This document shows positions 9,377-64,000 of a stretch of DNA of 64,000 nt, piece after piece (the stretch's first letter is position 1; the number at the start of each line of letters is the position of its first letter). Origin of the DNA: Lachnospiraceae bacterium (GTDB lineage: Bacteria > Bacillota > Clostridia > Lachnospirales > Lachnospiraceae); NCBI GenBank assembly GCA_963661545.1, contig CAVLCU010000001.1:51-64050 (forward strand), given 5' to 3'. Under the pieces are notes generated by a model. The model was not told where the DNA came from and did not search any database. It saw nothing but the letters and a program-made list of their open reading frames with translations. Made by a program: the position numbers and the translations under genes.

Positions 9377-10612
9377 ATGGGAGAGAAAAAAGTCAAAAAC
9401 CGCTATCTGATTCTTGGCGGACTATTCGTGAATTCTTTTTGTCTGGGAGGAGCCTACGCCTGGAGTGTATTTGCCCTTCCCTTATCCAATGCCAGAGGAT
9501 GGGATTACGGGATGGTAACCCTGGCCTATTCCCTCTATCTTCTGATCAATGCCTTTTTCGGAATTCCCGGAGGCAAACTACTGAATAGTGTGGGACCTCG
9601 GAAGCTTTTGCTAGTCTCCAGCGTCCTGTTTGGCGGGGGCTGGCTGATGACGGGCTTCGCCTCCAACACCCCCCTTTTGTATCTCTTCTTCAGCGTCTGC
9701 TGCGGCATCGGCTGCGGCATCCGCTACAATCCCTGTGTGACCACGGCAACCCTGTGGTTTCCGGATAAGAAGGGGTTCGCCTCCGGCCTGGTTCTGGGCG
9801 CCATGGGGCTGGCTCCCCTGATTCTGGCGCCTGTGGCCAATGCCTTGCTGGTAAGCTTCAACGTATTGGTGGCCTTCCGGATCTTGGGGCTGATTTTCTT
9901 TGTTATCTCTCTTCTTGCGTCACTGCCGGTAGACGCTCCGCCGGAGGATTACGCTCCGGAGAAGATGACCACCCCCCAAGCGGGGGCAGAGATAAAGCCG
10001 GGAAAAAGCTGTACCTGGCAGGAAATGATGAAAACCGGTAAGTTTTACCTGCTCTGGATGGTATTCCTGGGCAGCTGCGTTGCCGGATTGATGCTCATCG
10101 GTCATGCCTCCGCCATCGGGCAGGAACTGGCGGGCATCAATGCCGGACAAGCGGCCATGCTGGTGGGAATCCTGGCCCTGGCCAATTTCGGCGGCAGAAT
10201 GATCATGGGTAGTCTGTCTGATGCCATCGGGCGCTATCCCACCCTGATCATCTGTCTGGCAGGGAGTACCCTGGATATGATCCTTATGGCCAAGAGTCAT
10301 TCCTTCCCCACCTACCTGGTGGCCATCGTCCTGGTGGGCATTACCTTCGGCGGTGTGCTGGCCACCTATCCTTCTATTGTATCCGACAGCTTCGGAAGCA
10401 AGCACATGGGAATCAACTACGGTATCGTCTTCACTGCCTACGGGATAGCTGCCGTGGTGGGACCTATGACCGCTACAGCCTTGAAGGCCAATACCGGCCA
10501 CTATACCGCAGCCCTGATCTTCGCTGGAATCTGTTCTGCCGCAGCTCTGGTTCTGACGGTGGGGCTTGCCCTGGCGGGAAGTAAGGACAAGAAAGCCAGG
10601 CAATCCCTGTGA
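9377..10612 (+). CDS. MFS transporter, OFA (oxalate/formate antiporter-like) family
   Basis: About 12 hydrophobic segments; GGAYAWSVF, WFPDKKGFASG and FGSKHMGINYG motifs. Substrate not assignable. Confidence 0.85.
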   Translation: MGEKKVKNRYLILGGLFVNSFCLGGAYAWSVFALPLSNARGWDYGMVTLAYSLYLLINAFFGIPGGKLLNSVGPRKLLLVSSVLFGGGWLMTGFASNTPLLYLFFSVCCGIGCGIRYNPCVTTATLWFPDKKGFASGLVLGAMGLAPLILAPVANALLVSFNVLVAFRILGLIFFVISLLASLPVDAPPEDYAPEKMTTPQAGAEIKPGKSCTWQEMMKTGKFYLLWMVFLGSCVAGLMLIGHASAIGQELAGINAGQAAMLVGILALANFGGRMIMGSLSDAIGRYPTLIICLAGSTLDMILMAKSHSFPTYLVAIVLVGITFGGVLATYPSIVSDSFGSKHMGINYGIVFTAYGIAAVVGPMTATALKANTGHYTAALIFAGICSAAALVLTVGLALAGSKDKKARQSL

Positions 10613-53270: not shown

Positions 53271-54398
53271 CTATTTCATGGGGTCTATGGTTTCCTCCGC
53301 AAGGTCTTCCGGCAGCCAGGCGGTTCCCGGCGGAAGCTTTCTCAGGAAGATCCGTCCCTCATTCTCCGGATATTTGGATTGATGAAATTTGAAGAGAAGG
53401 GTCCCGTCCGGCATTTTCCCGGCTATCTCTATCTTGCCCAGGGGATGGGACATACAGAATCGGAAGCATTTGCCCAGGCCATTTTGCTGGGCCTTTGCCT
53501 GCTCCACGATATCATAGCCCCTTTCCAGGGGTACCTGGAAGCGGTTCTTGACTCCGCTGACCGGTCGGCATTGAAACAGATAATAGGGCACAACCCCCGC
53601 GGCTGTCAGCTTGCGCAGAAGCAGCCCCAGGGTCTGAGGAGAATCGTTCACCCCCCTTAGCAGAACCGTCTGATTCTTGACCACAATCCCGCAGGTACGC
53701 AAGGTCTCCACAGCGGCCAGAGCCTCCCGGGTCACCTCATGGGGATGATTAAACTGGGTGACCAGATAAATCTGCTTTTTCCTGGCTGTCTTTCCTAAGA
53801 GGGCTGCCAGCTCCGGATCTTTTGTGATACGCATGGGAAAGGTCACCGGGATGCGGGAGCCTATCCGGATCAGGTCCAGATGTTCCATGGAAGAGAAAAC
53901 CTCCAGATAATGCGCCAGCATTTCCTGGGACATCATGAGGGCATCCCCTCCGCTTAGAAGCACATTGGTCACTTCCTTATGGTGGCTGACATAAGCCGCA
54001 ATTTGGTCAAAATGCCGGGCAATCTCCTCCTCAGAAAGCCCTACCAGCCGCCTTCGAAAGCAGTGACGGCAGTACATGGCGCATTGATTGGTAGTCAAGA
54101 TCAGAGCCGTCTCCCGGTATTTGTGCTGGAGACCCTCACATCTGGTATTGCTGGCCTCATCGCTGGTATCCAATCGGCCGCTTCTGTCCAGCTCCAGGAG
54201 GCCGGGGATGCACATCCTTCGTATGGGATCGTCGGGATCCTCCCAGTTGATCAGGGAAAGATAGTAGCGAGTGACCGACATGGGATACTCCTGGCACAAT
54301 TCCCGCATGGCTTCCGTCTGCAGCCTATCCAGCCCAAGCTGTTCGCTGAGCCTTCCAATATCCCTGATATTCTGTTCCAGTTCCTTCTTCCATGTCAT
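53271..54398 (-). CDS. KamA-family radical SAM protein (lysine 2,3-aminomutase-like)
   Basis: GLQHKY, CAMYCRHCFRRR, VLLSGGD, NQTVLLRGVND, PYYLFQC and SHPLGKIEI. ATGA overlap with the upstream radical SAM gene. Confidence 0.88.
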   Translation of the reverse strand: MTWKKELEQNIRDIGRLSEQLGLDRLQTEAMRELCQEYPMSVTRYYLSLINWEDPDDPIRRMCIPGLLELDRSGRLDTSDEASNTRCEGLQHKYRETALILTTNQCAMYCRHCFRRRLVGLSEEEIARHFDQIAAYVSHHKEVTNVLLSGGDALMMSQEMLAHYLEVFSSMEHLDLIRIGSRIPVTFPMRITKDPELAALLGKTARKKQIYLVTQFNHPHEVTREALAAVETLRTCGIVVKNQTVLLRGVNDSPQTLGLLLRKLTAAGVVPYYLFQCRPVSGVKNRFQVPLERGYDIVEQAKAQQNGLGKCFRFCMSHPLGKIEIAGKMPDGTLLFKFHQSKYPENEGRIFLRKLPPGTAWLPEDLAEETIDPMK

Positions 54399-55546
54399 AT
54401 GGCACTCGCCTCCTTGCTGACAGTCCTGGTTTGGGTGTCCCTCTCCATCCACTGGGCTCCTGCCTGCAAAAAGGCCTCTGTTTTGGCACAGAGATAGTCC
54501 GGCAGGCCGGTAAATTCTCCCGTCTCCGCCTGGGCTACTGCCGGACAAATCTCACAGATTTCCTTCCATTGACAGGCGGTACAGGGGGCGGGCAGGAGAA
54601 TCTTCTCCCTCTCTGCCCGGATAGCATCCCAGGAGGAGACAAAGCCCCTCTCTCTCACATCCACCGTGGGATGGTTCATCATTCCGCAGGGACGCATCTG
54701 CCCATCGAAGGTAATCCAGAAGGTGGTGGCACCGGCCCGGCAGCGAATGGGCTCTGTGGGGAATTCCTGACATTCCTGCATCTTCCTCACGGCCAAGCCT
54801 GACCCCATACGGGCGGTTCTCTCCCTGAGTTCCTCCGGATCAAAGCGATAGGTTTCATACTCCCATTGGACCCGCCCGGCCTCCTGGGGACTTAGCCTTG
54901 CGGATAGCCGGCCCTGGCCTTCCCAGACCCTCACCGGGGGAAAGAGGTAGGAGGCGGTCTGGACCAGCAGGTCGTTGGCCCGGGCGAAGTCATAGACGGC
55001 CGGCAGATCCCCCACATTCCAGGGTGTTGCGCTGTAATTCAGCTTGATCCGGATTCCGGCCTCCTTCAGAGCCTTCACCGCCCTGTAGGTTCGCTCATAG
55101 GCAGCGAGATCCCCGCACAGCCTTCCGTAAGTCTCTGCCGATGCCCCATAGAGGGTGATATTGACCCGCAGGGGGGGATTCCGGCGGAAGAATTCCACCA
55201 TCTCCCCATCCACCAGGCTGCCATTGGTATTGATCGACAAGAGGAGCCCCAGATCCCTGCAGCCCTTGTAGATCTCCCGAAAATCCGACCGCAGCAGGGG
55301 CTCCCCTCCAGTCAGCAGGAGGAGGAGCATCTGCCTGTCCCTGGCGGTCTGCGCCAGAGACAGCCATTCCCTGGTGGTCAGTTCCCTCCTGGCCGCCTCC
55401 CCATCCTTCTTTCTCTGATGGATATAGCACATGCGGCAGTCCAGGTTGCAGCGGGCGGTCAGTTCAAAAGTCCCCGACAGGGGCAGCCCGGGCTCATGAC
55501 TTTTGGCAAATAAAGAATCAATCCATTGCGAATAGGATAGGGTCAT
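54395..55546 (-). CDS. Radical SAM/SPASM-domain peptide maturase-like protein
   Basis: ELTARCNLDCRMC, TGGEP and NTNG; SPASM-type Cys pattern CRAG..ITFDGQMRPC...CTACQWKEICEICP...C. No N-terminal RRE visible. Confidence 0.88.
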   Translation of the reverse strand: MTLSYSQWIDSLFAKSHEPGLPLSGTFELTARCNLDCRMCYIHQRKKDGEAARRELTTREWLSLAQTARDRQMLLLLLTGGEPLLRSDFREIYKGCRDLGLLLSINTNGSLVDGEMVEFFRRNPPLRVNITLYGASAETYGRLCGDLAAYERTYRAVKALKEAGIRIKLNYSATPWNVGDLPAVYDFARANDLLVQTASYLFPPVRVWEGQGRLSARLSPQEAGRVQWEYETYRFDPEELRERTARMGSGLAVRKMQECQEFPTEPIRCRAGATTFWITFDGQMRPCGMMNHPTVDVRERGFVSSWDAIRAEREKILLPAPCTACQWKEICEICPAVAQAETGEFTGLPDYLCAKTEAFLQAGAQWMERDTQTRTVSKEASAI

Positions 55547-56451
55547 CTTCCACAGTCCTCCATCGTGCGCTCCAGACACCTGACGGCTCCCTCCTCCGGT
55601 CTGCAGGAGAGTCGGATCACAGGAATCCTCTGCATCAGGGGCAGGAGACCTTCCATCAGCCTTTGATGGCAATCTTCCACCTTATTATGGCCAAAGGTAT
55701 TGTTCAAAAGGCCCGACAGGGCCTCCGCTCCCTGCACCGGCTCTGCCCGATTGTCCTGCCCCTGACTTAAGAGGACAAGGGCGCGAAGGGGCAGCCGATA
55801 GTCCTGACAGATCCCGGAGGTGCCGCAAAAGGGCAGCCCCCAGGCCAGGGCCTGGCCCTCCCGGCAGGAAAGAGCCACCTTATCTCCATTGAGGGGCCAA
55901 GCTCCCCTCAGCTTTTCCCAGAGAGCCGCCTGGGTGGATTTCCCCACCCCGGAGGGACCCACAAAGGCCACCACGCCCCCCTGGAAAGCCACCGCCGAGG
56001 CATGCAGGACCACCACCCCCTGAAGCAGCAGCTGGTAAGGCAGATCCATGGCAGGCCATATATTACGGATAAGGCTGGCATATTCCACCATGCCAGCCTC
56101 CGTCATCAGGCGAATCTCCCCGCCCAGGACCGGGTAATCCGCCCTCAGGCAGGCCTCCCCGGTCCATCGATTCAGGGTCACCAGGGACAGGCGGGTCTGG
56201 TCCTGTCCCCGGTAGAGTCTGGTGAAGGGCCCCTGCCCCAGCAGAATCCCCCCCGGCCGGGGCAGGTTATCCACCAGCTCTATCACCACTCCTATATCCC
56301 TCCTCGCTTCTTCTCTCCCCCTTCTTGTCTCTTTCGCCTCTTCCCTGGAATCCCCCCGGCGGAAGAGGCGGGAGTTGGGATCCTCCCTCAGAGCAAAGGG
56401 AGCTTCCAGTCTCAGAACCAGGCCTCCTATCCCATAATGATAGAGGTACAT
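55543..56451 (-). CDS. HPr-kinase-like P-loop protein (putative peptide kinase)
   Basis: LHASAV...GPSGVGKSTQA, LNGD and PFCGTSG. ATGA overlap with the radical SAM gene. Confidence 0.78.
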   Translation of the reverse strand: MYLYHYGIGGLVLRLEAPFALREDPNSRLFRRGDSREEAKETRRGREEARRDIGVVIELVDNLPRPGGILLGQGPFTRLYRGQDQTRLSLVTLNRWTGEACLRADYPVLGGEIRLMTEAGMVEYASLIRNIWPAMDLPYQLLLQGVVVLHASAVAFQGGVVAFVGPSGVGKSTQAALWEKLRGAWPLNGDKVALSCREGQALAWGLPFCGTSGICQDYRLPLRALVLLSQGQDNRAEPVQGAEALSGLLNNTFGHNKVEDCHQRLMEGLLPLMQRIPVIRLSCRPEEGAVRCLERTMEDCGR

Positions 56452-56715: not shown

Positions 56716-59700
56716 TCAGGTTGCTGCCTGAATGGTTACAGAAATGGGCTGGCTGGCCTTGCCCTCCCTGTCATAAGCAGTCACCACATAGGTATAGGAA
56801 CCGGCCTGGGTCTGCTTAAAGCTCTTGCTGAAGGAATAATCCTTGACCTTTCCTGCATCCGCCGCCTTCTTGTTGGTGGGAGTCAGGGTAACGGGCTCTT
56901 CCTGGCCGGGAAGCTTCACCGTAACATGATCCACATCCTTGGAGGTGGTCACCTTCAAGGTATAGCTTCGATTGATCTTAGTAGATGCCGGGAGGCTTAC
57001 CTCCAGTTTTTCCGGCTGGAAGGCATTCCCCGCCTGCTCCACCAGCTTCACCACCTGCTCCCCCAGGTTTCCGCTGGCAACCGGGCGAATATGGCTGCTG
57101 ACCTTCAAACCGCTGAGGGAGAGAATTCCCGTGGAATCCGCCTCATTGGTGATGACCACATAATCCATGCCCAGCTGGCCCGTCTCATCCTGGGTCACCT
57201 CCACCGGGTAATACATCTCTGTGGCGGTGGAAGCCAGTCCTTCGATGGAAGAGGTCACTGTTCCCTCCCCCAGCTGCTTGGCACTGACCTGAACCGTATC
57301 TCCCGCCTGGTAGCCCACCAGACCAAAGGCAATGGTGGCGCCGGGAGCCAGGTAAACCTCATTCTGCGGTCCCTGCTGCTTGTAATTGGCTATATCCGCT
57401 GTTCCGGTGGAACCCTCGTATTCGATATAAACCGCCGCATTCTCTATGATCCCGTCTTCCTCCAGCTCATTAATGGTGGTTTTCAGGAAGTCGAAGAGGG
57501 AATAATAGGAGGTTCCCTGCTCGGCGCTTTCGTAGCTCTCCTCATTTTCCAAAGGCTGGTAGACCCGGAAGGCGTCGATATAGACAGCGATCTCTGCATT
57601 GCCCGCACCCTCGGAGGCCGTCCTCGTGGATGCCGCAAACAGAGAGCGGAAGAAGCTGCTAAACCGGGAGAAGAAGCCCCTGCTTGTCTTCTCCTGGGTC
57701 TCGCCGGAGTCTGTCTCCTCTTCTGTCCTTTGTCCAAGGTCCGGACCGCTTCCCCCATTGAGCAGGCTGTTGTCATCCATAAAGGAGACCTCCACCCCTG
57801 CTTCCAGATATTCCTCCATGCCTGCTGCGGTCAGGATGGCCTCCGGGGACACCGAGCTAGTCTCCTGACTGGACCCCTGGCTGATCTCCTGACTTGTCGC
57901 CGGGCTGGCCTCGGATGCCTCATCGGCATAAAGGAGATTTTCCGCCTGGAGGAAACCTGCGGTTTTGGCCTTGCTCCCGCTTCCGCCCTGGCTGGCCGGG
58001 CTGATATCATTTTCTGTACCGGAGCCCTGGGCTGCCCCGGAACCGGCCGTCAGATAACCCTTTACCGTGACCCTATAGGTGCCATAAGGCAGTCCCTGCT
58101 TTCTGACCACCGGAACCTGATAATCCAGGATGCCACTGCCGGTTACCAGGGAATCATCTCCCCGGAAATAGGTATCCACCAGATAGCCCTGGACCACCTC
58201 TCCCTGGGCATTCTTCAGACCTACCACCAGGAGGCCGGTATTGGTTCCGCACTCGGAGATGAGATCGAAACCGGTTCCTGTGAAGGTAAAGGCAGCCTCA
58301 TCTGTGGCAGTCTCCAGACTCAGGACTGCCTTCTTGGCACTTCCCAAACTGAAGCCGGTATCCTCTGCATAGGCCTCTGAATAGCCATAGGGGATCTCAT
58401 GATCCGCCACCTGCCTGCTTTCTGCCCCCTCCGTCTGGCTTTCTGCCTCCCCGGTCGGCACCCAGGCGCTGGTCTCCCCGGGGGTACTTACCAGGTTTTC
58501 CTCATACAGGACATTCGTCTCCGGCAGGAAGGTAATGGCCTTATTGACCTTATAATTTCCGGCAAAGGTCAGGGTCAGATTGGCCCTCCTGCCGGTATTG
58601 ACCTCCGCCGGTGTATAGGTGACTGCATTGGCCTGTCTGTCCAATAGGACATCGGGAGGATTCCCCTCCAGGGTAACCCCGGCAGCCTGCTTTTCTACCT
58701 GGTTGGTTCCGGCCAGGACTCCCTCATACCGGTTGCCTATCCCAAAATCATAGGTATAGGTCAGAGCCTGGGGCTCATAGGTGATGGTCAGCTTGCCCGA
58801 AGTGGTCGTAATCCGATAGGTGTTGGAAATGTCATTTCCCTGGCTGTCCTTTACCAGCACCGTACTTGAATAGCTAATGCCATTGTCATATATGCCGGGA
58901 TTGATTCCCCGGGCGGTGGTAAAGATCACATTCTGAATGATGCCATTTCCATCTGTGGTCAGGTAGGTTCCATCCTCTCTTCTGGTCAGCTTTTCTGTCC
59001 CCATATAGATTGCAAATCCGGGAACCGTCTTTTCGCTGCCGTCATAGGGCTGGATATCACTGTCCGCCACGATACGGATGGCCTGGCGATCCAGGGTGGT
59101 ATACAAGACCTGGATGACATTGTCCCCTTCCACCACTGTATAGGGCAGAGTCCCCTGCTGTACTCCATCGCTTACATTGGTATTTCCGGCCGTCTGGATG
59201 GCCTCCGCCTTTTTATAATTCAAGTTGTTGACTTCATAGCCCTCCGCCAGACTGATCTGGGTTCCCACCGGAACACCGGTGATAAAGCTGGTGTCCAGAA
59301 GATTCCCCTCCTCCAGGGTATCCAGGTAATACTTCACCTGTACCGTGGCCGTCTGCTGGGAGGTCTTGGTCAGCTTGAGCTTGAGTTCATCCATACCTCC
59401 GTTTATACTGTTATCAAAACAGTAAATATCCATATGGATCCTTTTCCCGGCCAGGGACTGATTCCCATAGTGATTTTTCAAGACCGTGGAAATGGTGGCG
59501 CCGTCTGCGGAGACATACCAGCCATCCGTATGATTCAGATAGGAGGCATTGGGTATGGCTACCACTCCTTCCTTGGTCACCGCCTGATTGGGATAAACCC
59601 CATAAAAAGCACGGGTAGCATAGGTTCCATGATAAGAAGCAGGCACAGTCCTTCCCCAGTCAGCGCTGACATTTGTGACATCCGACCAGATTCCCTTGCC

Positions 59701-61266
59701 CACGGTTCCGGAATAGAAGGCCAGATAGGAATCATCTTCCAGACTGGTGGGGGCATCTCCTTCCATGTATACATAGACATACATGTCGTCATTGATGGCG
59801 ATGATCCTCCGGTTGCTGACTCTGGCGCTGGACCCCTCATGCTCCTCAATATAATCATAGATGGGCTGATACTTGCTGTCATTGGCCGAGACCAGGGTGA
59901 TGGTATCATCCAGGTCATAGCCCTCGGGCCAGACAAAGGTTCCGGATATCTTGCGGACATCCGCTTTTTTCCAATCCTGGGTTCCACTGGGCCAGTGATT
60001 CCAGGTCGCCGCGCTGATTCCCTCCCCGCCCACAGTGCTTTTATTGGAATATTGGCTTGCGGTATTATAATCCCATACCGTCATGGAAGAATCCGTATCC
60101 AGGTTCAAAACATCCCCATCCGACCAGCTGATGGTCTGGTAATCCCCGGTTCCCCCCTGGTCGATATATTGCAGATCCCTTACCAGCTTCCCGTTGGTCC
60201 CCTGGCTATAGGTGACATTGTATTTTGGCTCCAGGGTTCGTGACCAGGTGATCTCCGGATAGACAGCCGTAACTGCCTTCAGGGCATCCCTGGCTGCCTT
60301 CAGGGCTGTCATAGTGGTCAGACCAGCCACTGCCTCCTCCTGGCTGGCATAGGTTTCCACTCTCTCGTAGGCCGTCTGAGCCTTCTCCCGGGCAGTCACA
60401 AAATCCGCCCAGCTACTTACCGAATAATCATCCCGGTTCAAAGCCTGGGACTCCGTCAGCAGGCTAGCCGCCGCTTCCGTCCACTCGATCCCATAAACCG
60501 TCCCGGCAGGCTCCGTGGTTTGATGGAAGAGGTAGAGGTCACTGCGGTTTCCGTAGCTAGACGAATAGCTGTTCTCTTGGCTGCTATAGACCAGATAATA
60601 GGAGGCCTGAGATGCCATATACGTTGCTCCAATCTGAACAGAGCTTTCTCCCGTAATGCTCACGGGATAATAGGTATAAAAAGTGGAATTTCCTGTCGTA
60701 ATCTGTCCAGCATACGGATAGAGGTAGGTTCCATCCTGGTCCTTCAGATAATAATAAGTGCCGTTTGCCTCCAGGGTGAACTCTGCCGTCTCCTGGCTTG
60801 TCCGGATCTTGCCATCGGTAATGGTTACCGGGGCACTCCCCCCGGTCTTGGTCAGGGCATAGGCATCTCCGCTGTTGGAGCTGAGGATCAGGTACTTGTC
60901 CCCTGCCACGATTCCCCCGGCTCCATTGGCCACCAGGTCATAATAGGTTTCCCCGCTGCCGCTGGTCTGGGTCACCCTGCCATATTCTGTCACTGTCCCC
61001 CCATCATCGGGATGATCTCCCCCGTCTTGCCCCCCTGCATCCACAGAGGCGGTCTGCAGGCTGCCGTCACTGCCTACAATCGTATATTCATATCCCTTTT
61101 CCGGGTCTGCGGTGGTATCCGTGTAGGTGCCCCCCTCCACCGTTCCCAGCAGTTCCCCATATCCCTGGTCGCCCTGGTCTGTCCTGTCTGCCAAGGCACT
61201 GACAGGCAGGAGGGAAAGCACCATGCAGATCGACAGCAGGAAGGACCATATTCTACTCTTTTTCAT
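56716..61266 (-). CDS. Large secreted multidomain protein (about 1516 aa) with no recognisable wall anchor
   Basis: Signal peptide MKKSRIWSFLLSICMVLSLLPVSALA; FIVAR-like DYSVSSWADF; MBG-like YDG..V; beta-rich C-terminal region; no LPxTG, SLH or TM tail. Alternative GTG start 61275. Confidence 0.8.
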   Translation of the reverse strand: MKKSRIWSFLLSICMVLSLLPVSALADRTDQGDQGYGELLGTVEGGTYTDTTADPEKGYEYTIVGSDGSLQTASVDAGGQDGGDHPDDGGTVTEYGRVTQTSGSGETYYDLVANGAGGIVAGDKYLILSSNSGDAYALTKTGGSAPVTITDGKIRTSQETAEFTLEANGTYYYLKDQDGTYLYPYAGQITTGNSTFYTYYPVSITGESSVQIGATYMASQASYYLVYSSQENSYSSSYGNRSDLYLFHQTTEPAGTVYGIEWTEAAASLLTESQALNRDDYSVSSWADFVTAREKAQTAYERVETYASQEEAVAGLTTMTALKAARDALKAVTAVYPEITWSRTLEPKYNVTYSQGTNGKLVRDLQYIDQGGTGDYQTISWSDGDVLNLDTDSSMTVWDYNTASQYSNKSTVGGEGISAATWNHWPSGTQDWKKADVRKISGTFVWPEGYDLDDTITLVSANDSKYQPIYDYIEEHEGSSARVSNRRIIAINDDMYVYVYMEGDAPTSLEDDSYLAFYSGTVGKGIWSDVTNVSADWGRTVPASYHGTYATRAFYGVYPNQAVTKEGVVAIPNASYLNHTDGWYVSADGATISTVLKNHYGNQSLAGKRIHMDIYCFDNSINGGMDELKLKLTKTSQQTATVQVKYYLDTLEEGNLLDTSFITGVPVGTQISLAEGYEVNNLNYKKAEAIQTAGNTNVSDGVQQGTLPYTVVEGDNVIQVLYTTLDRQAIRIVADSDIQPYDGSEKTVPGFAIYMGTEKLTRREDGTYLTTDGNGIIQNVIFTTARGINPGIYDNGISYSSTVLVKDSQGNDISNTYRITTTSGKLTITYEPQALTYTYDFGIGNRYEGVLAGTNQVEKQAAGVTLEGNPPDVLLDRQANAVTYTPAEVNTGRRANLTLTFAGNYKVNKAITFLPETNVLYEENLVSTPGETSAWVPTGEAESQTEGAESRQVADHEIPYGYSEAYAEDTGFSLGSAKKAVLSLETATDEAAFTFTGTGFDLISECGTNTGLLVVGLKNAQGEVVQGYLVDTYFRGDDSLVTGSGILDYQVPVVRKQGLPYGTYRVTVKGYLTAGSGAAQGSGTENDISPASQGGSGSKAKTAGFLQAENLLYADEASEASPATSQEISQGSSQETSSVSPEAILTAAGMEEYLEAGVEVSFMDDNSLLNGGSGPDLGQRTEEETDSGETQEKTSRGFFSRFSSFFRSLFAASTRTASEGAGNAEIAVYIDAFRVYQPLENEESYESAEQGTSYYSLFDFLKTTINELEEDGIIENAAVYIEYEGSTGTADIANYKQQGPQNEVYLAPGATIAFGLVGYQAGDTVQVSAKQLGEGTVTSSIEGLASTATEMYYPVEVTQDETGQLGMDYVVITNEADSTGILSLSGLKVSSHIRPVASGNLGEQVVKLVEQAGNAFQPEKLEVSLPASTKINRSYTLKVTTSKDVDHVTVKLPGQEEPVTLTPTNKKAADAGKVKDYSFSKSFKQTQAGSYTYVVTAYDREGKASQPISVTIQAAT

Positions 61267-61350
61267 ATCCTCCACTCATCCTTTCTTCCAAAACCTATAC
61301 GTCTCTGTCACCCTTCTTGTCTTTACCCCGGTGGTCATCTTGCTGCCTGC

Positions 61351-64000
61351 TTATTTCTCCCGTCGGTAAATCTGATAGGTAACCCCTTCTGTGGCCTCCC
61401 ATACCAGGTTCACCATTCCCTCCTGGTCTCTGGAGGCAGAGGCCGTCTGATCCGGCAGGATGGGCTCTGTCTGTCCCCGGCTGATCTGGTAGGACGCCCC
61501 GGCTGTCGTATCAAAGGTAAAGATCCCATTTTCCCCACGGACCTCCACAGCCTCCCCATTGCAGGTTACGGAAATATTCTCCCAGCCCGTCTTCAGGGAG
61601 CAGGTTCCCCCATTGCGGGAGACTATGTCAAGACTAATCAGCCCAAGGTTCTCCCAGTCGGCGCTGACCTCAAATCCCCCTTTCGCCAAAAGGCCCCGGA
61701 AGGAGCCGGAGGACCAGGCAGAAGGAAGGGCAGGCAGGACTTCGATATAACCCATATTGGACTGCAGGAGCATCTCCCCGAAGGCTGCGGAATAACCGTA
61801 GTTGGCATCAATCTGGAAGGCCTTGCCGTCCCCGCCGTAACCGCCATAGTCATGGTAGCCCCAGAGATTCTTCATCACACCATGGTTCAATACCGAAGAC
61901 AGGTAATCATAGGCATTGTCCCCATCTCCCAGGGCTGCCCAGGTACAGGCCCGCTGAGCCAGGCTCCAGCCGCTGACGGTATTCTTTCCCCGAAGGTTCA
62001 GGGTATTGACAGCCGCTGCCTTATCCGTTTCATAATCCCCGCTGATGGAACCCAACATACTGCCGGGGAAGATGCCCAGCATCTGGGAGATATGGCGGTG
62101 ACTGGGATCGTCCTGATTATAGCCATTGACATAATCATTTTCATCATACCATTCCCTGATATAGGAAGAACCGGAGGACACCCCATTGCGGGAGCTGCCG
62201 GTGGTTCCCAGGAAGCTGGTATAGAGCCTGCTGCGGGTATCCTCCATAGCCTGAATGACCCCCCTGTCTTGATTCAAGGCTCGGGCTGCTTCTATGGTAT
62301 CGGTATAGAGCTGCCAGATCAGGGACTGCTCGTAGGTATTGCCGTAGGTCATGCCCCCGATCTCCGGAGAGATGGACAGAGGGAAGACCAGCTTCCCATC
62401 CTTTTCCTCCAGCAGCTGGTCATACATGGCCACCTGCTTCTCCAGCAGGGGATAGAGGGTTTCCTCCAGATATTGCCGGTCCCCGGTATATTGGTAATAA
62501 TCGTAGCAGGTTTGCAAGAGCCAGGTAGCGGCCGAGGGGGACCAGCCCCAGGAATAAGACCAGCCGGGGCAGGTATATCCATAGGGGGTATTCTGGGTAT
62601 GCATCATCATGCCCCAGCTGGCATCCGTATAAGCCTGCACCGTCCGGTTGCCAGGCTCATACATGGCCTCCATATATTGACACAAGGGCTTGAGGCAGGA
62701 GGCCAGGTTGCCGGTTCCCGCCAGCCAATAGTTCATCTCCAGGTTGATGTTGGTATGGATATCCGAATACCAGGGGGCCTGGTTATTGTTATTCCAGATG
62801 CCCTGCAAGGTGGTGGGCAATTGGCTGTTCTCCCGGCTGCCGCTGATGAGAAGATAGCGGCCGTATTGGTATTGCAGGGTCTCCAGATATCGTTTCTCCC
62901 CATCCGAGGCTGTGGAACGGGAGTAGCTGGTCAGGAGGGCATCCGTAGTCTGATCACTGCTGCCTCCCAGATCCACCCAGGCTCCCTCATAGAGGCTCTT
63001 ATAATCCGCCTGGTGATCCGCCAGCACCTGGTCATAACCCTTGCTGAGAGCCCCATCCAGGACAGCCCTCACCCGGGCCTTCAGCTGGTCGGCACTCTCC
63101 CCCGTCCGGTAGTAATATTCTTCCCCTCCCTCCGGGTTGGAAAAGCTGGTGGAATAATCGGTAGCCGCCGTTACATAGACCGTTACCCCGGTAGCCTGAC
63201 TGACCTGAATGCCAGTGCCGGAGACAGTAAGGCTTCCATCCTCCGCCACCACGGCCAGCTGGGTATTGTGGAGCAGGCCGTTATTGGAGACACTTCCCTC
63301 GCAATTCATATAAGCCACCGGACTTTGATCCCCCTCCGTCCAGGCGGAAATGCTGCCATTTTGCTTACTGGTCAGGGAAAGGGTAAAGGACAGGCTGTCA
63401 CCGGTCAGACGTGCCACAATGACATTGTCCGGATTACTGGCAAAATAGGTCCGACTGTAACCCCTGTCGGAGACCGAAGCCAATCCCTCCTCCAGATCCA
63501 GATCCCGGACATAAGCATCCGTCTTACCGCTTCCCCCGCCGGTAAATTGAAAATACAAGTCCCCCAAAGCCTGGTAGCCCTCATAATAACCGGTGGAGAC
63601 TCCCTGAAGCTTAGCAGCATTCACACTCCCCCCATTCAAGATGGTGGACACCATGCTATTCCAGTCTTCATCGGTAATCCCGGCATTGCCTCCCATATTG
63701 CTGCTGTCGTAATTGCCCCCGGACCAGAGGGTCTCCTCGTTGAGGGTCAGATGCTCCTGCTCCACCTCCCCGTAGATATTAGCCCCCAGGCGCCCATTTC
63801 CGATGGGCAGGGTAGCACTTTGCCAAATGCCATTGGAATTCCACCAGGCCGAGGCAGTCTGGCTGGCAGGCTCATCGTACCAAAGCCGCATTCTGCTGCT
63901 GGTCTGGGCATCCGTCCTTATCGGCTGCCCCGGCAGGGAAGAGACCACCGCAGCCGCCAGACACAGGCTGAGCAGCTTCCCCTTTTTTCCTCTCCCACCT
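61351..64000 (-). CDS. Secreted GH95 alpha-L-fucosidase-like glycoside hydrolase (5' end beyond the window)
   Basis: LPIGNGRLGA, LNEETLWSG, QYGRYLLIS, LQGIW, HTNINLEMNYW, SPE, HRHISQ, FQIDANYG and LPALP. The frame stays open to the window edge and encodes a signal peptide ..KKGKLLSLCLAAAVVSSL..DA. Confidence 0.92.
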   Translation of the reverse strand, partial: GGRGKKGKLLSLCLAAAVVSSLPGQPIRTDAQTSSRMRLWYDEPASQTASAWWNSNGIWQSATLPIGNGRLGANIYGEVEQEHLTLNEETLWSGGNYDSSNMGGNAGITDEDWNSMVSTILNGGSVNAAKLQGVSTGYYEGYQALGDLYFQFTGGGSGKTDAYVRDLDLEEGLASVSDRGYSRTYFASNPDNVIVARLTGDSLSFTLSLTSKQNGSISAWTEGDQSPVAYMNCEGSVSNNGLLHNTQLAVVAEDGSLTVSGTGIQVSQATGVTVYVTAATDYSTSFSNPEGGEEYYYRTGESADQLKARVRAVLDGALSKGYDQVLADHQADYKSLYEGAWVDLGGSSDQTTDALLTSYSRSTASDGEKRYLETLQYQYGRYLLISGSRENSQLPTTLQGIWNNNNQAPWYSDIHTNINLEMNYWLAGTGNLASCLKPLCQYMEAMYEPGNRTVQAYTDASWGMMMHTQNTPYGYTCPGWSYSWGWSPSAATWLLQTCYDYYQYTGDRQYLEETLYPLLEKQVAMYDQLLEEKDGKLVFPLSISPEIGGMTYGNTYEQSLIWQLYTDTIEAARALNQDRGVIQAMEDTRSRLYTSFLGTTGSSRNGVSSGSSYIREWYDENDYVNGYNQDDPSHRHISQMLGIFPGSMLGSISGDYETDKAAAVNTLNLRGKNTVSGWSLAQRACTWAALGDGDNAYDYLSSVLNHGVMKNLWGYHDYGGYGGDGKAFQIDANYGYSAAFGEMLLQSNMGYIEVLPALPSAWSSGSFRGLLAKGGFEVSADWENLGLISLDIVSRNGGTCSLKTGWENISVTCNGEAVEVRGENGIFTFDTTAGASYQISRGQTEPILPDQTASASRDQEGMVNLVWEATEGVTYQIYRREK

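Follow-up and report, generated by a model that had tools for sequence, protein, structure and literature searches.

A split fibronectin type III-like domain as a probable tether between a predicted GH95 alpha-fucosidase and the product of the adjacent gene

In chaperone-usher and type V pili, a single donated strand completes an incomplete Ig-like fold, and the subunits polymerise. In cellulosomes, secreted enzymes are docked by cohesin-dockerin complexes. The fibronectin type III (Fn3) fold is a seven-strand sandwich with the sheets A-B-E and C'-C-F-G, and its core motif consists of a Trp in strand B, a Tyr in strand C and a Tyr in strand F; the C-C' loop is also called the CD loop. According to PMC11666773, the two peptides obtained by cutting a monobody (engineered FN3) in the CD loop reassemble, and they were called the most efficient fragment pair, with a Tm of about 45 C versus about 78 C for the unsplit monobody; the same text cites Dutta et al. 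2005 for split FN3. The mucinolysome of Limousia docks secreted glycoside hydrolases including GH95 non-covalently, and the words "Fibronectin", "FN3" and "split" are absent from the main text of that report (PMC12997984). In the literature searched, which was largely without subscription journals, no natural mid-domain split of an Fn3 was found.

The locus described here is read from the minus strand of a 64,000-nucleotide stretch of DNA, which is called the window in the following. The first gene (61351-64000), whose start codon lies about 30-90 nt past the window end, encodes a GH95 enzyme (P0002) with three GH95 Pfam domains in residues 39-839 (PF14498, PF22124 and PF21307, all far above cut-off). 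Its nearest solved structure is 2EAB (E 1.6e-136), and N417, N419, E546 and D731 align to the corresponding 2EAB motifs; these residues, assigned from AfcA positions, are presumably the catalytic Asn, Asn, Glu and Asp. The enzyme is thus predicted by its domains and catalytic residues to be an alpha-fucosidase. It is also predicted to be secreted, with an N-terminal leader that is basic and then hydrophobic (in sequence beyond the window end), and no LPxTG motif or TM segment was found in it, nor was a wall or membrane anchor seen. The C-terminal end of the ORF reads ...VNLVWEATEGVTYQIYRREK and is followed by a TAA stop at 61353-61351. The preliminary description had read this end as strands A to C of an Fn3, and the final 30 residues (61354-61443) do align to the first part of an intact domain in a single-chain homolog, P0003.

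After an 84-nt spacer (61267-61350), the second gene starts with an ATG at 61266 and extends to 56716, and it encodes a partner protein of 1516 aa (P0001). The last 21 nt of the spacer are purine-rich, Shine-Dalgarno-like and the same in a second species of the same genus (G004), while the remainder has diverged; no terminator-like site was found on the minus strand of the spacer. Residues 1-26 of the partner (61189-61266) form a signal-peptide-like start, predicted by inspection and hydropathy, and the claim that this gene has its own Shine-Dalgarno sequence and signal peptide was upheld. Residues 36-75 (61161-61042; YGELLGTVEGGTYTDTTA...YEYTIVGSDGS) make up the second half of the domain, strands C', E, F and G, by their match to P0003 1030-1059. 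By sequence and model, a variable region, a jelly roll, a MucBP-like repeat and a C-terminal module follow. The domain is therefore not contained in a single polypeptide, being distributed over two genes with a stop, a spacer and a second signal peptide between its halves. The leaders of both proteins, as judged by inspection and hydropathy, suggest that they are exported separately.

P0003 (3033 aa) carries both halves in one 88-residue domain, in which a short loop joins them, and in this protein the GH95 is followed by the joined halves and these by a stretch that shares 34% identity with P0001 310-1511 (E 8e-172). The model of this domain (pLDDT 88) has seven strands, and the window stop falls in the loop between strands 3 (C) and 4 (C'). 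The top Foldseek rows for the domain were Fn3 domains (probability 1.00, E about 1e-3, none of the Fn3 rows with E <=0.001). A profile built from the P0003 domain, the halves and four intact GH95-linked domains matched two solved relatives of the module, 3MPC (E 2.7e-10) and 5G56 (E 1.4e-8). In the source alignment of this profile (A4), MAFFT had put four second-half rows partly beneath the first half, and the fold and profile results from A4 arose despite those misplaced rows. W867 of strand B and Y875 of strand C are invariant in all five split GH95 rows, and Y59 and Y61 of strand F are invariant in 21 of 21 partner rows, a row set that was selected using the second half; the motif is aligned to 3MPC. 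The Pfam fn3 family (PF00041) had no match in P0001, P0002 or the intact domain of P0003, and no Pfam or NCBIfam family reached its cut-off for P0001. The split domain is Fn3-like by structure and by the 3MPC match, and it is not a member of PF00041. Because a natural homolog holds both halves in a single domain, and this natural joined form folds as an Fn3, the Fn3 reading goes beyond chance resemblance. The fold of P0003, the Foldseek rows, the 3MPC profile and the two-chain model described below agree with the original proposal of one Fn3 broken in the C-C' loop. Furthermore, 32 proteins were found to be longer relatives of the GH95 C-terminus, and many of them run past the position of the window stop into a complete Fn3-like module.

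The same break was found in four loci of three lineages, namely the window, G004 (locus L006), L012 and L070, and G004 has the same two gene ends as the window. In a GH95 cluster of 38 members, all 15 that were examined have their C-terminus at the same residue; in a partner cluster of 23 members, 14 of the 15 examined have the second half at their start, the other one being N-terminally shorter. A profile spanning the signal peptide and the second half had 239 matches among 50%-identity representatives, and 150 of these matches were examined. Of the 150, 35 had the second-half match near the N-terminus; three of the 35 were excluded as multi-Fn3 fragments that bring first halves of their own. 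For the remaining second-half proteins (at least 32, from the same 150 of 239), the first-half motif was nowhere in the chain in 32 of 32, and 31 of the 32 had a typical leader at the start, by inspection. The long second-half proteins are relatives of P0001 with approximately 27-48% identity. The family alignment was selected with the second-half profile, so the conservation of the second half in it is biased.

A metagenome scan with motifs of the partner core gave 77 loci. In L012 and L070, the partners share 36% and 30% identity with P0001 and have the second half, and the gene upstream is in each case a signal-bearing GH95 with its stop at the end of strand C. The upstream first half was foreseen blind and confirmed at both new second-half loci (2/2), although their clusters were in the query alignment. 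These two loci had the second half and the GH95, 75 had neither, and none had only one of them. The 75 negatives consist of 73 loci from a single lineage, 57 of which have 1 kb or more of upstream sequence, together with L013 and the 5'-truncated L059, and they amount to about one independent loss, because the three negative rows in the tree form one clade (100/99). Upstream genes were covered for three lineages, and approximately 30 second-half clusters are without DNA context and may include orphans. The break is family-wide rather than strain-specific and the fused form is the exception, with homologous pairs found in G004, L012 and L070 and a single-chain version in P0003.

A two-chain model of GH95 residues 843-882 and partner residues 27-78 had a score of 0.61 in three runs, versus 0.02 for the best of 3 controls. 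The runs shared at least 94% of contacts, and the pLDDT of the partner was at least 75. Of the solved complexes, 116 of 157 reached the score mark, as did 2 of 215 mismatched pairs (rough counts, custom alignments having been used), and the pass, which may reflect likeness to solved Fn3 domains, indicates compatibility and not binding. In the model, strand C (875-879) is in contact with both F (61-65) and C' (39-43), and strand B (864-865) with E (48-49), in Fn3 register, so that the modelled halves restore the Fn3 topology together. Since each half gives strands to both sheets, with C between C' and F and with E paired to B, neither half would be a sandwich alone.

We consider it likely that the split Fn3 docks the GH95 onto its large partner as a complementary-fold tether after export. 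As the trees below suggest, a GH95 lineage with an intact Fn3 behind the catalytic part would have been split in the C-C' loop; today the first gene stops after strands A-B-C, and the second, which has a ribosome-binding site and signal peptide of its own, opens with C'-E-F-G. Each protein would be exported separately, and the halves would fold together into one Fn3, which would hold the enzyme, itself without an anchor, at the mature N-terminus of the partner in a one-to-one manner. The likely purpose would be to keep fucosidase activity beside a glycan-binding, surface-retained partner. The docking by fold complementation that had been suggested at the outset gained a modelled complex, while the "enzyme complex" of the same suggestion is better understood as one dedicated pair. 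This genome gives no support for a multi-enzyme platform of the cohesin kind, because the whole source assembly (93% complete, 249 contigs) contains a single copy of each half, and all first halves seen are on a GH95. The description of the arrangement as cohesin-free holds, with no cohesin or dockerin Pfam match in the window proteins or in 18 partner relatives.

The halves might instead each function with a different partner, for example if the second half self-associated or bound another protein. A neighbour is visible for few second-half clusters, and in a genome that is 93% complete the true partner could be unassembled. This reading is improbable, as the assembly holds each half just once, all 32 second-half proteins lack a first-half motif within the same chain, P0003 joins exactly these halves, and a swap to an unrelated chain drops the model score to 0.02 or less.

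Comparison with G004 gave an estimate of the constraint on the split domain. The first half has 29 of 30 residues identical (dN/dS 0.04), the second half 37 of 40 (dN/dS 0.14) and the partner signal peptide 23 of 26 (dN/dS 0.08); the GH95 body has a dN/dS of 0.17, and the variable region right after the second half one of 0.39. The first and second halves have 8.5 and 8.0 synonymous changes and 1.5 and 4.0 nonsynonymous changes, respectively. Pooled constraint on the halves was not significantly higher than on the rest of both genes (Fisher p 0.08), which would fit a fission relic, that is, halves that are harmless, non-functional tails of an old split, as would the persistence of one clade without the second half and the GH95. 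But the halves gather synonymous changes and few amino-acid changes, the buried-core residues and the exact end point are kept in proteins that are 30-46% identical, and both halves are present or absent together across the 77 metagenome loci, so we regard a relic as very improbable and a working tether as the better explanation.

The direction of change was read from two trees. In an 18-row GH95 tree, which was midpoint-rooted and had two long branches outside the clade in question, the five split enzymes form one clade (100/99), and this nests in a clade (100/100) whose other rows have an intact Fn3. Because of this nesting, the intact Fn3 is the likely ancestral state of the split GH95s. 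The tree of the partner core (26 rows) places P0003 as the sister of the split-form P0148 (100/98), with P0146 next (100/100), and this grouping sits inside a larger split clade (100/99). In identity, the catalytic region of P0003 (residues 432-930) is closer to four intact-type GH95s (57-79%) than to three split-type ones (37-55%), whereas its first half is closer to split-type halves (53-60%) than to intact ones (10-40%). P0003, a single mosaic sequence from one contig, is probably a secondary fusion or recombinant. Residues 931-976 of P0003 look like a recombination joint from an intact-type GH95 to a split-type first half.

Among the genomes searched, the split system has a rare or patchy occurrence. 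In a family sample of 400 genomes, 33 matched the N-terminal profile, and the second-half motif was present only in the window's own locus among the 30 loci inspected. In a class sample, 0 of 398 other genomes had a split locus (2 genomes were unscored), and among the 8 genomes of a genus sample the full partner was found in G004 only. Three other orders gave 0 of 18, 1 of 239 (a partial C-terminal match only) and 0 of 7 genomes, and a scan of genome contigs with one protein query returned L006 only. There was no match among plasmids. Viral contigs gave five loci, namely one intact Fn3 that belongs to an unrelated protein and four weak matches read as chance, and no match to the partner core. 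A comparison of the partner profile with solved sequences gave no genuine match (best E 0.43).

The conserved core of the partner (residues 336-730; 59077-60261) was modelled by AlphaFold2 (pLDDT 89) as a galactose-binding-like jelly roll plus a MucBP/B-repeat-like domain. The jelly roll resembles the sugar-binding domains of beta-galactosidases, a middling resemblance (best VIA Z 7.1, rmsd 3.2 A, 128 aligned), and the Foldseek rows for the core included YwfG/SraP, which are lectin-plus-stalk surface proteins, at a TM of about 0.2. Going by these middling matches, the partner may be a lectin-like, glycan-binding surface protein. No SLH, LPxTG or TM anchor was found in the window partner; its relatives add ricin-like, CBM32-like, FIVAR or SLH domains, with SLH present in P0037, P0103 and P0106, and we infer that the window partner is retained at the surface. 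Its C-terminal module recurs in giant secreted paralogs that start with an in-chain GH20 or GH88, so the proposed tether site is the position where the paralogous giants hold an in-chain glycoside hydrolase. This module, without a Pfam name and with the motifs YEENF, FTGTGFD and GPQNEVYL, was seen in many giant secreted proteins with varied N-terminal catalytic domains (G000 C39:9091-14739; L129 5193-10445; L130 2190-8828; L131 3344-7315). A Phe-rich amphipathic stretch, GFFSRFSSFFRSLF, possibly a membrane-binding helix, lies at about 57630-57690 (-) of the window (P0001 residues about 1192-1212); P0035 has a similar stretch, as do P0003 close to its N-terminus and the L129 and L131 proteins at one end.

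Downstream of the partner gene lies a cassette of a ScmC/HprK-like P-loop gene and a radical SAM/SPASM gene (54395-56451, -), and neither member of the pair reached the cut-off of any NCBIfam family. The cassette adjoins the partner family and the giant paralogs (GH20, GH88, PA14-like) in the window, L006, L012 (14228-16278), L032 (14200-16189), L070 (2-2000), G000 C39 and L129-L131. It accompanies the partner family and not the split specifically, being found also in L032, beside a relative that lacks both halves, and the giant secreted proteins might be its substrate. Directly after the cassette, the window has a KamA-family radical SAM gene (53271-54548, -; TIGR00238 above cut-off). In G004 (L006 12363-13710), two genes that resemble a restriction-modification pair by eye, one of which we take to be an MT-A70-like methyltransferase, lie between the KamA gene and metG, and they are not there in the window. 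In L012 the cassette is followed by genes for an NTP_transf_5 nucleotidyltransferase, an ABC transporter, an S26-like peptidase and Wzc-like proteins, and in L032 (16541-20245) a secreted GH85 with CBM32-like and B-repeat domains stands just after the radical SAM gene.

These neighbours and the spacer bear on whether the two pieces are joined covalently, either by read-through of the stop or by ligation through the radical SAM, kinase-like or peptidase neighbours. In the window the two ORFs are in one frame across the 84-nt spacer, and a modification cassette is linked to the family. Against this, the window spacer contains a second in-frame stop, the spacers of L006, L012 and L070 (115, 79 and 76 nt) are out of frame, and the cassette also occurs beside relatives and paralogs without the split domain, which makes covalent joining most improbable. 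Conserved read-through was rejected on the spacer lengths (84, 115, 79 and 76 nt). The L012 spacer (9922-10000) has a GC-rich hairpin, with the whole spacer folding at -26.4 kcal/mol, which the other three spacers do not have; this hairpin could tune the ratio of the two proteins. Finally, an assembly or gene-calling artefact, for which one could cite the fragmentation of the source assembly into 249 contigs, is hardly credible when independent assemblies give the same ends (15/15 GH95 and 14/15 partner members; L012 and L070).

Non-covalent tethering of the GH95 to its partner remains our preferred reading, and a broader version of it is more doubtful. The half-Fn3 pair could conceivably be a portable plug-and-socket, with the socket at the N-terminus of variable surface proteins and any first-half enzyme swappable, which we think rather unlikely. 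If it were portable, lineage-specific pairs would be expected, and enzymes other than GH95 would dock in some lineages. Such swapping is hinted at by P0003, in which a GH95 of another type has been joined by recombination to a first half of the split type.

If the tether is real, a broken domain would serve as a docking device between separately exported proteins after a mid-domain gene split, and it would be a further route, beyond cohesin-dockerin, SLH and sortase, to attach secreted glycan-degrading enzymes. The split shows that gene fission need not respect domain boundaries, and modules of this kind are missed by Pfam and by single-protein folding. The clostridial-type GH95s P0005, P0006, P0022 and P0025 have the same GH95 and adjoining Fn3-like module, but their module is intact and is followed by binding and anchoring domains in the same chain, whereas here these domains are supplied in trans. 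Cohesin and dockerin are two complete domains that serve many enzymes, whereas here one domain is common to one pair. In the donor-strand systems of pili, an incomplete Ig-like fold of a secreted protein is likewise completed by another protein; however, a single donor strand meets a six-strand acceptor there, while three strands would meet four here according to the models, and each pilus subunit has both donor and acceptor so that the chain grows, while here each protein has one half, no growth would follow and the cargo is an enzyme. The engineered split FN3 shares the fold family and the cut site with the present case; it is a human domain split by design, whereas this one occurs in nature, is divided between two neighbouring genes that each encode a signal peptide, and is conserved in distant lineages. 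The family offers approximately 30 natural variants of a tag/catcher pair, at the site that engineers found best for splitting FN3.
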